Positions 405 to 47,900 of a stretch of 64,000 bases of DNA are shown here, one piece after another. Source of the stretch: an uncultured Bacilli bacterium (GTDB taxonomy: Bacteria > Bacillota_I > Bacilli_A > RF39 > UBA660). The notes beneath the pieces were generated by a model that worked only from the letters and a program-made list of their open reading frames with translations, ran no database searches and had not been told where the DNA came from. The stretch spans positions 2,928 to 66,927 of the forward strand of contig CALVUX010000008.1 of assembly GCA_944363715.1 (NCBI GenBank), written 5' to 3'. Made by a program: the position numbers and the translations under genes. The number at the start of each line of letters is the position of its first letter. Within the stretch, counting starts at the first letter, position 1.

Positions 405-758
405 AGTGTTTGCATAAATGTAATAATTATGATAAGATGTATATGTAAGAAAAATTTTCATACACTATAAAAGGAACACTTAATATTGTCGTGTTGAGTG
501 TACCTCTAATTATATTTTTGTTAGAGACACCTAATTCAATAGTTGTGAGTTAGGTGACTTTTTCTATATTAAGACTAAAAGTAGTAGCAAATTCTGAAAA
601 AGGATAATAATTACTAAAGATAAAATTAAAAAATCTTTCTTGTTCATTATTTCGACCTCCTTTCTGAGGCCACACCCAACTATTAAATGTTCCTTATAAA
701 TATAGTATCAAATTAATTTCTGTATAGCAAGAGAAAATGTAATAAATTAGTTACAAAT
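405..758 (-). repeat. Copy A of the ~355-bp type I TA-like module (reverse orientation)
   Basis: Near-identical stretches shared with 43237..43590 and 44463..44819, e.g. aaatgtaataaattagtt, ccaactattaaatgttcc, aaaaggaacacttaatatt. Hairpin cacctaa(N15)ttaggtg at 528..556. Confidence 0.8.
564..647 (-). CDS. Small hydrophobic peptide (27 aa, MNKKDFLILSLVIIILFQNLLLLLVLI); candidate type I toxin
   Basis: ATG preceded by the SD aaaggagg. Paralogous to the peptides at 43343 and 44567. Too short for the ORF track. Confidence 0.4.
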   Translation of the reverse strand: MNKKDFLILSLVIIILFQNLLLLLVLI

Positions 759-785: not shown

Positions 786-1685
786 GTGATATTTATGATT
801 CTTTTTGTGAGTGGTAGATGTGATATAGTAGCTTTCTATACTCCTTGGTTTATTAATAGATTAAAAGAAGGGTATGTGGATGTTAGAAATCCTTTTTATA
901 AGAAGCAGGTGAGTAGAATATATTTTAATGATGTGGATTTAATTTACTTTTGTACTAAGAATCCTAGACCTATTGTTCCTTACTTAAAAGAGATAGATAA
1001 GCCTATACTATTTAATGTTACGATTACTCCTTATAAAAGAGATATTGAACCTAATGTATTAGATAAAGATAAGATAATTGAAAGTGTTATAGAAATATCT
1101 AAGATTATTGGTAGTGATAATATTTATGTTAGATATGATCCTATATTTTTAAGTGATAAATATAATTTAGATTATCATATTAAAGCATTTGATAGACTTT
1201 GTAGTTTACTTAATGGATATGTTAAACATATTATAGTATCTTTTATAGATGATTATAAAAATGTAAGGAAGAATATGAAAGTTTTAAGAGTCAAACCTTT
1301 TGACTTTAATGACTATAAAACAATTGGAACATCTTTTAGTTCTATTGCAAGTAAATATAATATGACAGTACAAACTTGTTTTGAAAAAGAAAATCTTGTA
1401 GAGTATGGTTTTATTAAAGGTGATTGTTTAGGAGTAGAACTTGCTAAAAGACTTACTGGTAAAGATAGGTTTAAAAAGAGTAAAGTTAGAAAAGGTGGGC
1501 TATGTAATTGTGTAGAAATGGTTGATATAGGGTATTATAATTCTTGTAAACATTTTTGTAAGTATTGTTATGCTAATTATAGTGAGAGTGAAGTTGTTAG
1601 TAACTTTATGAAACATAATGTAAATTCATCTTTACTTATTGGAGAGTTAGAAAAAGATGATATAATAAAGGTAAGAAAAAGTTAA
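786..1685 (+). CDS. DUF1848 family protein
   Basis: N-terminal DIVAFYTPWFINRLKEGYV and a C-terminal Cys cluster CNCVEMVDIGYYNSCKHFCKYCYA, matching the DUF1848 layout as recalled. Confidence 0.5.
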   Translation: MIFMILFVSGRCDIVAFYTPWFINRLKEGYVDVRNPFYKKQVSRIYFNDVDLIYFCTKNPRPIVPYLKEIDKPILFNVTITPYKRDIEPNVLDKDKIIESVIEISKIIGSDNIYVRYDPIFLSDKYNLDYHIKAFDRLCSLLNGYVKHIIVSFIDDYKNVRKNMKVLRVKPFDFNDYKTIGTSFSSIASKYNMTVQTCFEKENLVEYGFIKGDCLGVELAKRLTGKDRFKKSKVRKGGLCNCVEMVDIGYYNSCKHFCKYCYANYSESEVVSNFMKHNVNSSLLIGELEKDDIIKVRKS

Positions 1686-22117: not shown

Positions 22118-22119
22118 TA

Positions 22120-22458
22120 TTTTAGACAAGTGCTGGGATTAATTCCTAGAGGAAAGTCCATGCTCACACAGTCTGAGATGATTGTAGTGTTCGTGCTTAA
22201 GGAAAAAATAACTTAAGGTAGTGTTTAACACTAACGGCTTAGTCTTTACCTAAGGGTTTTCTATGGTAAAGGCTTATAAAGTGCCACAGAGACGAGTGTC
22301 TAGGAAACTAGATGAGTGAAACGCGGTAAACCCCACGAGTGAGAAACCCAAATTATGGTAGGGGAGCTTTAAGAAAAGAAATGAATTTTCTTAAGGACTA
22401 GAAATAGTAGATAAATACTTGTCACCTAGAAATAGGTACAGAACATGGCTTATTAAAT
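22120..22458 (+). ncRNA. rnpB: RNase P RNA, bacterial type B
   Basis: Conserved blocks GAGGAAAGTCCATGCTCACAC, AGTGCCACAG-GACG, AACGCGGTAAACCCC-CGAG-GAGAAACCCAAAT, GGTAGGGGA and ACAGAACATGGCTTA, all collinear with B. subtilis rnpB. It sits downstream of gpsB as in Bacillus. Confidence 0.85.
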
Positions 22459-43145: not shown

Positions 43146-43236
43146 GTATTTAGGCTCTTTTATAATAAAGTTTATATATAACATGATTATTTTCAATAAT
43201 ATAATTAGAAACTATTTTCTATTTGCGGGAATTCGC

Positions 43237-43590
43237 AACTAATTTATTACATTTTTCTTGATATATAGAAATTAATATGATACTATATTTGTAGGAACAT
43301 TTAATAGTTGGGTGGATATCTCCTAGAAAGGAGATTGATATTATGAATAGAAAAGATTTATTAATAGTCTCTTTAATCATAATTATCCTTTTACTTATAA
43401 AGTTATTATTTTTAGCGATATAAATAAAAGCCACCTAACTCACAACTGTTGAATTAGGGGCTAATCCATAATATAAAAATTTGGAGGTCCACTCAACATG
43501 GGAATATTAAGTGTTCCTTTTCATATTGTATGAATTTTTCTTACAAATATACTATATCATAGTTATTACATTTATGCAAATTTATTTTTA
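43237..43590 (+). repeat. Copy B of the ~355-bp type I TA-like module
   Basis: Collinear with copy C (44463..44819) and, as reverse complement, with copy A (405..758). Confidence 0.85.
43343..43423 (+). CDS. Small hydrophobic peptide (26 aa, MNRKDLLIVSLIIIILLLIKLLFLAI); candidate type I toxin
   Basis: SD aaaggag sits in the 3' arm of the hairpin atctcc/ggagat. Two paralogues exist in the window. Confidence 0.4.
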   Translation: MNRKDLLIVSLIIIILLLIKLLFLAI

Positions 43591-43621
43591 CTTACATGAT
43601 ATTATTTAAATAAATATAATG

Positions 43622-44344
43622 TTATGATAGACTTCTATTTGTAATATCTGCTCTTTCTCTTTGATTTAGACCATAACAACTAACTGGTGTTAAATTATTA
43701 TTCTTATCTTTTACAAAAACATCAGTAAATCTATAAAAGTTATCACTTGTATTATCGTAGAATACAAAGTTAATGTCGCCTGTACTTGTAACTAGACATG
43801 CTGTAAGTTCTGCCTGTTTAGTCTTAAACACTTGATTATCTTGATTCATTTAAATATAGCTAGTGAAATCGTCTAGAGAAAAGTTTTCACTAAAACTTCC
43901 TCTTGGGTGGGAATGTCCGTGACAGACAACAAAACCATTATATCGGTTATTATTAAGTTTATTTACTAAATCATTTCTCATATTTTCATCATAATTTGCT
44001 TCTGCTCTTTGTCTATTATCTCTTGAGCTTGATGCAATAAAACTATCAAATTCTATTACATTGTTTTCAACTTCTTTTCCATATAGGAAAAATGGTACTT
44101 CTTTTTTCTCTATATTGGTAACATCTTGTACTCCTAACAAAGATCCATATACTTCTTCACTTAATATTATTTTTGAGTTTGGCATATTATTTATAATATC
44201 AGAATTAATTGGAGTCATTTCTCCATAAGCACTATATGTATTGAAGTTTTGTTGATGGTAAGCTCCGTAAGGATTTTTATGAATCATAATGTCTTTTACT
44301 TTTTGTGAGTATTGTTCTCTAGTCATAATTATTTTTCCTTTCAA
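43622..44344 (-). pseudogene. RadC-like JAB/MPN-domain protein interrupted by an in-frame TAA (ORFs 43850..44344 and 43622..43849 abut as ...TSYI*MNQ...)
   Basis: HGHSHPRGSFSENFSLDD resembles the RadC JAMM motif HNHPSG...S..D. The two ORFs are contiguous in one frame. Confidence 0.4.
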
Positions 44345-44462
44345 TGTTTTATTAATAGTTATATTGTCAATAATTCTATCTAATAATTATTTTAGCATAA
44401 TTCTTTCATTTTCGGTATTGTATATTTAATAATAAAAAAATGATATATTTACGAAAACCTGT

Positions 44463-44819
44463 AACTAATTTATTACATTTTTCCTTGTTATCTAGAAATT
44501 AATATGATACTCTATATGTAGGAACATTTAATAGTTGGGTGGGACCTCAGAAAGGAGGTCTAGCTAATGAACAAGAAAGATTATTTGATTTTTTCTTTAG
44601 TAGTTATGTTGTTTCTTCAAGATATCTTGTTGCTATTTGCCATACTTGCTTTAAAATGAAAGAAACCGCCTAACTTACAACTGTTGGATTAGGTGGCTCT
44701 CGAAAAATAATTAGGGGTCCACTCAACATGCGAATATTAAGTGTTCCTTTTAATATTGTATGAATTTTTCTTACAAATATACTATATCATAATTATTACA
44801 TTTATGCAAATTTATTTTT
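44463..44819 (+). repeat. Copy C of the ~355-bp type I TA-like module
   Basis: See copy B. Confidence 0.85.
44567..44659 (+). CDS. Small hydrophobic peptide (30 aa, MNKKDYLIFSLVVMLFLQDILLLFAILALK); candidate type I toxin
   Basis: SD aaaggagg sits in the 3' arm of the hairpin gacctc/gaggtc. Confidence 0.4.
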   Translation: MNKKDYLIFSLVVMLFLQDILLLFAILALK

Positions 44820-45807
44820 GTATAACTAGTGATACATCTTTAAAGTAATAATTTAATATCTGTTTATAGTTATAACCTAACTCTGATAGATTATCTGCCC
44901 CTATAATACTTAGACCTAGTCCACTACCTATTCCTCTTGTTATGAAAGTAAGATAATCTTTCTTGATAATTATAGTAATGTCTGTTGAAGGTAAATCTAA
45001 ATAGACTGCTAGACTTCTGGCATCTATTTTTCTTTCTCCTAAGTCTAATTCTTTTATTCTGTTAGAGTTACTGATACTAGTAATCTTTATATTAAAATTA
45101 TCACTTTTTAGATTTAATTTTTCTTTAAAATCTTTAATACTGTAGTCTTTTCTTTGTAAATAATTAGGGTATGCTAAATCCCAGAGACTTTCTTTTTTTA
45201 CAGTATAAGGAATACTTTTATCTTCTTCGGTGTAGCCATTACTAACTAAGTGGGTAAAACATTTAATGGGTTTATTATTATTAATTAAATACTCGCCATT
45301 AGTTTCATCTATTACTTTATTAAAAATAGTAAATTTAGATTTATAAGTTTCAGGATAAGTAACTTTATAATAATTATAGTTATGATATGATAAAGATAAT
45401 TTATTTAAGTCTAAATAATTATTCTTTAGATTATAGATTATTTCTCCTCTGTATAAAACTGTTAAAGCTTTTAGAGTTTCTTCTTTTAAAGAGATATTTA
45501 TATTACATAATAATAAACTTAATAGTAGGTCTTTCATAGTCATTTTTTCTTTAGTATTAAGAGTAATTAAATAATCATTTAAGTAAGTCTTGTTATTTTC
45601 GATAGTAATCATTTTAGTACTAATACCATTTACAATAAAAACAATTTTATTACCATTAAATTTAATATCATGAGTAACTAAATAACTTCTAGCTTTCTTT
45701 TCTAAGTCATCTTCCTCTAAATCTTCACCAAATTCATAATCAACATTTAAATATAAGTATAATACTTCTTCATTATTACTTCTTGCAATTTTATAACTTT
45801 CTAACAT
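44812..45807 (-). CDS. SpoIID/LytB-domain protein (putative)
   Basis: The C-terminal RGIGSGLGLSIIGADNLSELGYNYKQILNYYFKDV resembles the SpoIID C-terminal block GHGVGMSQ.GA..MA..G..Y..IL..YY. Confidence 0.45.
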   Translation of the reverse strand: MLESYKIARSNNEEVLYLYLNVDYEFGEDLEEDDLEKKARSYLVTHDIKFNGNKIVFIVNGISTKMITIENNKTYLNDYLITLNTKEKMTMKDLLLSLLLCNINISLKEETLKALTVLYRGEIIYNLKNNYLDLNKLSLSYHNYNYYKVTYPETYKSKFTIFNKVIDETNGEYLINNNKPIKCFTHLVSNGYTEEDKSIPYTVKKESLWDLAYPNYLQRKDYSIKDFKEKLNLKSDNFNIKITSISNSNRIKELDLGERKIDARSLAVYLDLPSTDITIIIKKDYLTFITRGIGSGLGLSIIGADNLSELGYNYKQILNYYFKDVSLVIQK

Positions 45808-46821: not shown

Positions 46822-46931
46822 AGTCTAAAATCAATCCTTTCTACTTTTTAAAGTATAACATAATTTTTCATTAAATTATCATATTTTTTACATAATTTTT
46901 GTGATATAATCTATTCTAGGTGAGGAAGAAG

Positions 46932-47900
46932 ATGATAGATAAGCAGTTTAAGAATCTTGAAGAACAAATAGAAATACTTAAATATAAGGGTATGACTATT
47001 ACAGATGAAAAATATACTAAGAAGATATTACTAAGAGAAAATTACTTCTTTATATCTGGTTATAGATATCCTTTTATGAGAAGTATGACTGATAAACATT
47101 TCTTAGAAGGGGTTACTTTTGAAGAGATGTATAGTTTGTTTCTATTTGATAGAGCGATTAGAAATGTGTTCTTTAAGTATTTACTTGTTATTGAAAATAA
47201 CTTAAAATCTATATTTTCATATCAGTTATCTAAGAAATATGGATATAAAGAGAAATATTATTTGCGTAATAAAAACTTTACTAATGATAAGAATAAACAA
47301 AAACAAGTAAATGATTTGATTAAAAAGATGAAAAGACAAATTAGGATTAATGGAAGTCAACATACAGCGACTGCACATTATATGTCTAATTATGGTTATG
47401 TTCCACTTTGGATTTTAGTTAAAGTTTTATCTTTTGGAATAGTTGGAGAATTATTTTCAATAATGAAATATGATGATCAAGTAAATATTTGTAAGATTTA
47501 TAATATACCATTAGATGATTTTAGTAATTATTTACCAATACTTTCTAATTATCGTAATTTGTGTGCTCATGAAGATATTTTATATGAAAATAGAACTCAG
47601 AAGAAAATTAAAGGAACGAAGTTTCATGAGTTACTTGGTTTAGAAAAAGATGATGAAGGGTACTATACTAAAGGAACTAATGATTTATTTGCCCTTCTTA
47701 TTATAATGAAGAGAATGTTAAGTTATGATGAATTTAAAGATATGTGTTTAGAGCTTGATAAAAGAATAGATAATCTTGAATATAATTTGCATAGTATTAA
47801 AATAGATAAAATATTAGAAAAAATGGGGTTTCCTAAAAATTATATGGAACTTGCTAATATTGAGAGGAGAGATGTAGATAATGAAGTCAGAGAGAATTAA
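46932..47900 (+). CDS. Abortive-infection protein, Abi_2 (AbiD/AbiF/AbiD1) family
   Basis: Family hallmarks: EQIEILKYKGMTI, YFFISGY, FLFDRAIRN, IENNLKS, YVPLWILVKVLSFG and the invariant YRNLCAHED. An extended -10 TGaTATAAT lies upstream at 46903..46910. Confidence 0.75.
   Translation: MIDKQFKNLEEQIEILKYKGMTITDEKYTKKILLRENYFFISGYRYPFMRSMTDKHFLEGVTFEEMYSLFLFDRAIRNVFFKYLLVIENNLKSIFSYQLSKKYGYKEKYYLRNKNFTNDKNKQKQVNDLIKKMKRQIRINGSQHTATAHYMSNYGYVPLWILVKVLSFGIVGELFSIMKYDDQVNICKIYNIPLDDFSNYLPILSNYRNLCAHEDILYENRTQKKIKGTKFHELLGLEKDDEGYYTKGTNDLFALLIIMKRMLSYDEFKDMCLELDKRIDNLEYNLHSIKIDKILEKMGFPKNYMELANIERRDVDNEVREN

Follow-up and report, generated by a model that had tools for sequence, protein, structure and literature searches.

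A widespread, uncatalogued module of gut Bacilli with type I toxin–antitoxin-like architecture and a predicted 5′–3′ mRNA clamp

Type I toxin–antitoxin (TA) loci can be recognized by (i) a small hydrophobic open reading frame (ORF) of less than ~60 amino acids (aa) on a short dedicated mRNA and (ii) an antisense RNA with its own promoter and terminator that is complementary to this mRNA. Tandem multi-copy hydrophobic small ORFs are a recognized hallmark of such loci (T1TAdb paper, PMC8594479). In the Gram-positive systems bsrG/SR4, txpA/RatA, bsrE/SR5 and yonT/SR6, the two promoters are convergent and a cis-antisense RNA covers the 3′ side of a small hydrophobic-peptide mRNA, overlapping the ORF (PMC8594479) and forming a long perfect duplex; the bsrG/SR4 duplex is cut by RNase III (PMC8309996), and SR4 also makes Shine–Dalgarno (SD) sequestration tighter. 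The fst RNA I/RNA II loci (par of pAD1, and including sprA1/SprA1as) have convergent promoters, an mRNA of ~230 nt with an SD stem-loop, an intramolecular helix hiding the extreme 5′ end, an antisense RNA free of overlap with the ORF and a peptide with N-terminal Lys and Asp (PMC7472228). In hok/Sok and aapA/IsoA, the full-length mRNA is locked by a long-distance 5′–3′ interaction with its SD sequestered, and transient co-transcriptional pairings have been described for hok and aapA3 (PMC6733600). Here we describe a module that occurs three times in a 64,000-nucleotide stretch of DNA from an uncultured Bacilli bacterium (contig CALVUX010000008.1; hereafter the window; G+C content 27.9%), which matches scaffold_397 of the ENA metagenome assembly ERZ28614922. 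Judged by sequence comparison, the module is real, widespread, uncatalogued and type I TA-like in architecture. We think it probable that each copy is an autonomous two-RNA locus of this kind, belonging to an uncatalogued family that combines a 3′-overlapping antisense RNA with a 5′–3′ clamp resembling those of hok and AapA mRNAs.

The three copies, each of ~355 bp, lie at 405–758 on the minus strand (A) and at 43237–43590 (B) and 44463–44819 (C) on the plus strand, where an earlier sequence-only reading of the window had placed them. A blastn search of the window with 43237–43590 returns 44463–44819 (E = 1e-80) and 752–409 (E = 1e-79), the next match having E = 4e-4, and a hidden Markov model of the family recovers exactly three copies and no fourth. 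Mean column identity in the alignment of the three copies is 84%; the 5′ untranslated region (5′UTR) and the tail are most conserved and the peptide-coding part is least conserved. The succession of elements proposed in the sequence-only reading is found in every copy: an extended −10 sense promoter, a conserved 5′UTR in which AGGAACATTTAATAGTTGGGTG is invariant, an SD sequence, AAGGAG(G/A), located 8 nt before the ATG and inside a hairpin, an ORF for a hydrophobic peptide of 26–30 aa, a post-ORF hairpin of the form C(A/G)CCTAACT..TTAGG(T/G)G with a T-run beyond it on the opposite strand, and a conserved tail that carries an opposite-strand promoter, TTGCAT-17-TGaTA(T/A)(A/G)(G/A)T. Each copy is also convergent to the 3′ end of the next gene, as had been noted. 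One feature had been missed: a portion of the tail repeats the 5′UTR in reverse complement.

The broader search of related genomes that the sequence-only reading had suggested recovers the family repeatedly. When metagenome contigs were scanned for a 5′UTR pattern, 50 matched; they derive from the guts of humans, sheep and other hosts, and nearly all contain the whole module. A second pattern, built from the KKD codons and the hairpin arms, identified at least 120 loci in as many species-representative genomes; this pattern left the 5′UTR and the tail free. The anchors of the two scans are independent. Among the matches listed, 77 of 80 titles are uncultured gut metagenome-assembled genomes labelled Bacilli, Tenericutes, Mollicutes, Mycoplasma sp., Erysipelotrichaceae, Bacillota/Firmicutes, Candidatus Onthousia, Candidatus Coprosoma or simply 'bacterium', and the other three are two Muribaculaceae and one Clostridia. 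With nhmmer, 214 modules were located in 171 loci, 34 of which contain 2–4 copies within 8 kb, often in tandem. Arrays of three to four diverged modules spaced ~350–450 bp apart are seen in L097 (1246–2186), L075, L052, L101, L117 and L089. The members of an array belong to different subfamilies with different 5′UTRs and tails, which would limit cross-talk between their antisense RNAs.

The impression that the peptide family and module are not known ones has held up. A cmscan search of 43200–44850 on both strands against Rfam 15, with E values up to 10, gave nothing relevant, and at the Rfam gathering score the only match in the whole window is RNase P, located away from the module. Six peptides searched against Pfam and NCBIfam with E values up to 10 yielded sub-threshold noise only. 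Pfam presumably holds an Fst toxin family, and the module peptides have no Pfam match. Our literature search found neither this family nor any type I TA family described from these taxa.

Comparison of 143 non-redundant copies, less than 93% identical to each other, supports a pair of convergent transcription units. The sense promoter is TTGATA-17-TG-a-TACTAT in copy B (43258–43286, plus strand; predicted +1 at 43293), TTGTTA-17-TG-a-TACTCT in copy C (44485–44513, plus strand; predicted +1 at 44520) and TTGCTA-17-TG-a-TACTAT in copy A (730–702, minus strand; mRNA from 694). Across the family, it comprises TTG (97/92/80% by position), a variable 17-nt spacer, TG (87/73%) and TATAAT (94/92/74/77/84/92%), followed by six variable nucleotides and then an A (74%) that is the first base of AGGAACA. 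The opposite-strand promoter likewise keeps its position family-wide, with TTG at 94–97%, a variable 17-nt spacer, TG at 96/91% and TATnAT at 98/98/72/–/85/97%. In the window it is TTGCAT-17-TG-a-TATAGT in copy B (43551–43579, minus strand) and TTGCAT-17-TG-a-TAAGAT in copy A (410–438, plus strand), and lies at 44781–44809 on the minus strand in copy C. Antisense transcription is predicted to start 7 nt past the −10 element, at 43544 (B), 44774 (C) and 445 (A). Promoter elements that stay fixed in position amid diverged sequence are good comparative evidence for both units. The −35 element of the copy C antisense promoter starts 3 nt past the stop codon (44812–44814) of a convergent 331-aa gene.

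The ORF between the promoters bears the marks of a translated sequence. In the window it encodes MNRKDLLIVSLIIIILLLIKLLFLAI (26 aa; 43343–43423, plus strand) in copy B, MNKKDYLIFSLVVMLFLQDILLLFAILALK (30 aa; 44567–44659, plus strand) in copy C and MNKKDFLILSLVIIILFQNLLLLLVLI (27 aa; 647–564, minus strand) in copy A. An intact ORF with an SD is present in 125 of the 143 copies under strict SD criteria; 12 of the other 18 have an ORF under relaxed criteria, and the strict misses are mostly variant SDs overlooked by the SD regular expression. The 106 distinct peptides, of modal length 27 aa and consensus MNKKDFLILSLVIIIFLLLFLLFIVLI, share a plan of 25–31 residues in which M-(N/S)-K-K-D precedes ~21 hydrophobic residues, a stretch that amounts to a single membrane helix. 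For the 88 ORFs of 27 aa, entropy at the three codon positions is 0.77, 0.32 and 0.98, synonymous changes account for 43% of differing codon pairs in frame versus 18% and 3% out of frame, and both other reading frames contain stop codons. This frame-specific signature indicates that the ORF is translated and under purifying selection. Conservation of KKD in the genome-derived set is imposed by the search pattern, but KKD is also kept in the metagenome set, which was anchored elsewhere.

The antisense RNA predicted for copy B is ~120 nt long (43544 to 43425, minus strand) and is the complement of the whole 3′UTR. It is predicted to begin with a hairpin (43528–43544) and to end at a terminator (43424–43460, minus strand) whose hairpin occupies 43432–43460 and whose U-run overlaps the peptide stop codon; its fold has an energy of −38.4 kcal/mol and a z-score of −5.85. 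The corresponding unit of copy C spans 44658–44809 on the minus strand (predicted RNA 44774 to ~44658), its post-ORF hairpin being at 44667–44695 on the plus strand. That of copy A spans 410–566 on the plus strand (predicted RNA 445 to ~565, with a 5′ hairpin at 445–463); the hairpin that lies at 556–528 in the minus-strand sense unit serves as the predicted antisense terminator (528–556, plus strand) and is followed by ACTTTTTCTA. Along the predicted antisense RNA, family members share one order: first a 5′ hairpin with a GNRA cap, then an A-rich linker, then the complement of the entire 3′UTR and last an intrinsic terminator. Of 139 members, 132 have a 5′ hairpin of at least 4 bp, with stem arms that come in 42 versions; in 74 members the loop reads GAAA on the antisense strand.

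The sequence-only reading had both RNAs ending at this hairpin as a shared bidirectional terminator, and this part of its proposal fails. In the 9 nt after the hairpin, the antisense strand has a mean of 6.15 T and at least six T in 74% of 136 members, versus a mean of 1.95 T and at least six in none of the 136 on the sense strand. With a T-run on the antisense side only, the hairpin is a terminator of the antisense RNA rather than a bidirectional one. The broader claim of a type I TA architecture with a convergent antisense RNA fares well in the comparative evidence. With a median distance of 6 nt from the stop codon to the start of the hairpin, the antisense overlap covers the 3′UTR and not the ORF; only the U-run of the terminator reaches the peptide stop codon.

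The antisense terminator probably also ends the transcript of the neighboring gene, to judge from the sequence. No minus-strand terminator is found in the interval 43434–43621, between the stop codon of the copy B neighbor (43622) and the copy B hairpin, and read-through from the neighbor would consequently add antisense transcript. Could the module then be transcription punctuation, with the hairpin terminating a convergent neighbor, the tail acting as an insulator and the small ORF a by-product? The missing terminator suits such a role, as does the convergence of 94 of the 118 modules that have a long ORF downstream. A terminator, however, needs neither two conserved promoters, nor a 27-codon coding ORF, nor a covarying 5′–3′ helix of at least 20 bp, and 24 modules are co-directional with their neighbor while 20 have another module next downstream. 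We regard this explanation as very improbable. A leader or attenuator of the downstream gene was also considered and is ruled out by the 80% of modules that are convergent with their neighbor.

Since the post-ORF hairpin terminates the antisense RNA alone, transcription of the peptide mRNA must continue past it. Most likely, on the sequence evidence, the mRNA continues for ~100 nt beyond the hairpin, closes on itself by a 5′–3′ helix (P1) and then reaches a U-tract. Placing its ends by promoter spacing and the U-tract, the predicted mRNA of copy B is ~235 nt (43293–43527, plus strand), beginning with the A of AGGAACA and ending at the U-tract that comes after the closing helix's 3′ arm; that of copy C is 44520–44757 (plus strand) and that of copy A runs from 694 to ~466 (minus strand) within a sense unit of 466–730. 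In 91% of members, a local hairpin with a mean energy of −5 kcal/mol ends no more than 2 nt from the sense U-tract, and it could act as the terminator of the mRNA before P1 forms.

P1 arises because AGGAACATTTAATAGTTGGGTG is the reverse complement, with G-U pairs allowed, of CACTCAAC...ATATTAAGTGTTCCT in the tail. In copy B, the 5′ arm AGGAACAUUUAAUAGUUGGGUGGA (43293–43316, plus strand) faces the 3′ arm UCCACUCAAC..UAUUAAGUGUUCCU (43488–43518), with the U-tract next at 43518–43527; the arms are 44520–44543 and 44718–44748 in copy C (plus strand) and 694–671 and 501–472 in copy A (minus strand). The SD is contained in a separate local hairpin, AUCUCCU/AGGAGAU at 43317–43336 in copy B (SD at 43328–43334, 8 nt before the AUG), with the SD at 44552–44558 in copy C and at 662–656 on the minus strand in copy A. 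The SD pairs with a local anti-SD 5–15 nt upstream and lies outside P1; family-wide, its unpaired probability is 0.18. The transcripts were folded from the +1 given by promoter prediction up to the T-run that follows TGTTCCT. The copy B mRNA folds at −70.6 kcal/mol (z-score −6.6 to −7.1) with nucleotides 1–24 paired to the 3′ end, copy A has the same region paired (z-score −6.0) and copy C pairs 23 of its first 24 nucleotides to the 3′ end (z-score −3.8). With the SD in a hairpin and the first ~24 nt paired to the last ~30 nt just before the U-tract, both ends of the mRNA would be buried.

An alignment of 137 predicted mRNAs provides strong covariation support for this structure. RNAalifold, given no prior structure, recovers P1 and the post-ORF hairpin. 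In the cleaned structure, 93.7% of cells are paired, compared with 36–48% when the 3′ partners are slid by one to three columns, and double-sided changes occur at 30 of 37 pairs (247 cells versus 67 in shuffles, with none of 500 shuffles reaching the observed value). The two segments of P1 (12 and 8 bp) are 96.7% and 98.3% paired and have compensatory changes at 16 of 20 pairs, and the post-ORF hairpin is 94% paired with double changes at seven of nine. About 10% of P1 cells are G-U, which would be A-C mismatches on the other strand; the helix therefore belongs to the sense RNA. For the 5′ element AGUUGGGUG, the 5′ arm of the post-ORF hairpin is a second complementary partner besides the mRNA 3′ end (43306–43314 with 43432–43440 in the window; columns 28–36 with 232–240 of the alignment). 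This pairing is 95.5% maintained, shows double changes at seven of nine pairs with none of 500 shuffles reaching the observed value, and is kept in divergent subfamilies. It is suggestive of a transient or metastable co-transcriptional helix like those of hok and aapA3.

These constraints also bear on whether the module is a selfish or mobile intergenic repeat (a MITE or a REP- or BOX-like element) spread by recombination or transposition, with incidental ORF and promoters. Modules do occur in several copies, between genes and frequently in tandem. The window copies have additional conserved flanking sequence in common and carry a short direct repeat, TTATTACATTT, close to each end, and a two-gene cassette is flanked by B and C in the same orientation. 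Against this, terminal inverted repeats belonging to the module are lacking, no transposase is nearby, and the sequence outside the two promoters varies across the family without conservation. The frame-specific substitutions and strand-specific G-U pairs imply selection on an expressed peptide and RNA. The possibility of a known non-TA repeat had been raised in the sequence-only reading, and no Rfam repeat family matches. A mobile repeat thus appears improbable to us. By contrast, comparison strongly supports the core of the earlier proposal, namely an autonomous module of unrecognized family that would produce a hydrophobic-peptide mRNA and a convergent cis-antisense RNA.

How might a type I TA-like locus of this design operate? 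What sequence comparison establishes is the two promoters and the coding ORF, P1 together with the SD hairpin, and the terminator and 5′ hairpin of the antisense RNA; the transcript ends, the decay route, toxicity and neutralization are inferred. In the scheme we propose, a σA-type extended −10 promoter would produce an mRNA of ~230 nt for a membrane peptide of 25–31 aa, and this mRNA would stay compact, with its SD in the local hairpin and its 5′ and 3′ ends buried in P1. The second extended −10 promoter, located in the tail, would fire in the opposite direction to make the ~120-nt antisense RNA, whose 5′ hairpin may be protective. The antisense RNA runs in the same sense as the 5′UTR of the mRNA, carrying a near-copy, not the complement, of the mRNA 5′ end; its pairing with the 3′UTR must consequently displace the 5′ end from P1. 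Indeed, when the 3′UTR is blocked in silico, the unpaired probability of the mRNA 5′ end rises from 0.08 to 0.45. The resulting duplex of ~95–100 bp would be an RNase III substrate, as for bsrG/SR4 (PMC8309996), and the freed 5′ end would be open to 5′-dependent decay, so that the mRNA is destroyed and no peptide is made. Should the antisense supply fall, the clamped, stable mRNA would persist and be translated, and the peptide would insert into the membrane and arrest growth. We consider it possible, though less likely than not, that strand displacement by the antisense RNA turns a closed, nuclease-resistant mRNA into an open, degradable one, and that this operates alongside hok/aapA-type co-transcriptional folding in a Gram-positive lineage whose genomes are very small; the two together would be a regulatory logic new to type I TA families.

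The module can now be set beside the described systems. It has both components expected of a type I TA locus, the antisense unit being recognized through sequence comparison. With bsrG/SR4, txpA/RatA, bsrE/SR5 and yonT/SR6 it shares a Gram-positive host, convergent promoters, a predicted 3′-overlapping cis-antisense RNA, a small hydrophobic-peptide mRNA and a long perfect duplex. It differs in that its antisense RNA would stop at the stop codon, whereas theirs overlap the ORF (PMC8594479), and the mRNAs of the bsrG/SR4 group are not described as closed by a 5′–3′ helix whose 3′ strand is the antisense target. The module also differs in that no SR4-like effect on translation is predicted: SD accessibility does not change significantly on antisense binding in silico (0.18 versus 0.23; p = 0.12), and an SR4-like change of accessibility is not supported. 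No Rfam, Pfam or NCBIfam homology to these four systems was found, in a comparison that did not check which of the antitoxin RNAs have Rfam models.

The fst loci resemble the module in their convergent promoters, mRNA length, SD stem-loop, lack of ORF overlap, N-terminal Lys and Asp and 5′-end-sequestering helix, although in the module the partner of the 5′ end is the mRNA 3′ end. The absence of a bidirectional terminator (none of 136 members with at least six sense T) sets the module apart, as does an antisense RNA that is fully overlapped and of ~120 nt rather than ~40–65 nt. No convincing DRa/DRb-type repeats complementary to the translation start were found in the module; the antisense 5′ segment pairs with the translation start at −5.9 kcal/mol versus −4.7 kcal/mol for shuffles, a weak effect, and the sole match seen is a short UAUGAA/UUCAUA. 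Taken together, the antisense-only terminator, the extension of the mRNA and the 5′–3′ closure argue for a layout other than fst/RNAII. The likenesses to hok/Sok and aapA/IsoA are the long-distance 5′–3′ lock of the full-length mRNA, the sequestered SD and alternative, possibly co-transcriptional pairings (PMC6733600). Those systems, however, are proteobacterial, have an anti-SD supplied by the 3′ end, need 3′ trimming for activation and have antisense RNAs that target the 5′ leader or the ORF, whereas the module keeps its SD in a local hairpin outside P1 and directs its antisense RNA at the 3′ strand of the clamp; neither its peptide nor its RNA has homology to theirs. In our comparison, the module is thus nearer to bsrG/SR4 (and txpA/RatA) in antisense position, to fst RNA I in its SD stem-loop and 5′ helix and to hok/aapA in its 5′–3′ closure, and is not a member of any of these families. 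The sequence-only reading had grouped it with txpA/RatA, bsrG/SR4 and fst/RNAII, and was near the mark for bsrG/SR4 in antisense position and wrong for the fst/RNAII layout.

Several points weigh against reading the module as a toxin–antitoxin locus, or temper the evidence for it. Transcription start sites, 3′ ends and the existence of both RNAs are predictions from sequence. In the folding model, the SD is equally occluded with or without antisense RNA, and no translational switch is evident. The covariation cells are not independent, and the covarying ones stem from a few divergent subfamilies; in addition, either search pattern predetermined one arm of a helix for a share of the sequences, making the apparent conservation partly a matter of ascertainment. 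The position-by-position profile of the 88 peptides of 27 aa contains no Pro/Gly motif, no Trp and no charged tail. The putative toxin peptides thus differ from Fst and lack the features that define Fst and Ldr (PXXXG, a conserved Trp, a charged C-terminal tail), a polar tail of any kind being absent. Finally, the pattern scan of viral contigs with the 5′UTR and a blastn search of plasmids gave no matches, and hence no plasmid or phage link that would hint at post-segregational killing.

Some of these points fit equally with the same anatomy around a non-toxic product: a small membrane protein, such as a modulator of a transporter or envelope enzyme, whose level is tuned by the cis-antisense RNA and the clamp. 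Strong conservation of the peptide under purifying selection is what any functional small protein would show, the loci sit on chromosomes, no link to plasmids or phages having been found, and there is no homology to known toxin families in Pfam or NCBIfam. However, two to four diverged paralogs within a few kilobases, together with tandem arrays, across at least 120 species-representative genomes are what type I TA loci typically show and would be unusual in an accessory subunit. Nor are the modules ever in an operon with a partner gene (80% are convergent with their neighbor), and layered repression by an SD hairpin, a clamp and a full 3′UTR antisense RNA is the pattern associated with toxic products. 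We consider a non-toxic peptide a real but rather unlikely alternative and continue to favor a type I TA-like locus.

If the peptide is toxic, few known type I toxins would be as short or as purely hydrophobic. Type I TA is essentially unknown in uncultured, genome-reduced gut Bacilli, which are abundant in humans and livestock, and its loci are invisible to standard annotation: exact look-up of ten module peptides in a collection of 15 billion proteins returned a single match, an unnamed 30-aa entry. The more than 140 diverged natural variants, with clear covariation in each RNA element, offer a comparative set for the interplay of an mRNA clamp, an SD hairpin and a 3′-overlapping antisense RNA.

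The sole match in a search of phage genomes is the AT-rich tail at 43519–43582, the region of the antisense promoter and 5′ hairpin (64 nt, 80% identity, E = 2e-4). It falls in an unannotated spot of 215 Staphylococcus phage genomes, and we judge it to be a chance likeness of promoter-like sequences. The direct repeat TTATTACATTT occurs at 43244–43254, upstream of the sense −35 element, and at 43563–43573, in the antisense promoter spacer, and copies A and C have the same arrangement. Only the subfamily to which the window's modules belong shows this repeat, which could be a protein-binding site or a duplication relic.

Genes neighboring the modules in the window are ordinary chromosomal ones (ABC ATPase, DUF1848, peptidase S51, SpoIID-like, phospholipase C-like and Abi_2). 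The DUF1848 protein (786–1685, plus strand) is divergent from copy A, and the abortive-infection-like Abi_2 protein (46920–47900, plus strand) adjoins the module cluster. A class B RNase P RNA is located at 22118–22457 on the plus strand. Copies B and C are direct repeats ~1.2 kb apart, and exactly between them is a two-gene operon (43622–44344, minus strand) encoding proteins of 75 and 164 aa without Pfam matches, the latter containing an HGHSHP...S..D motif that appears JAB/MPN-like by eye. Recombination between modules may have brought in or swapped this operon as a cassette and, because two copies flank it, modules may mark recombination hot spots.

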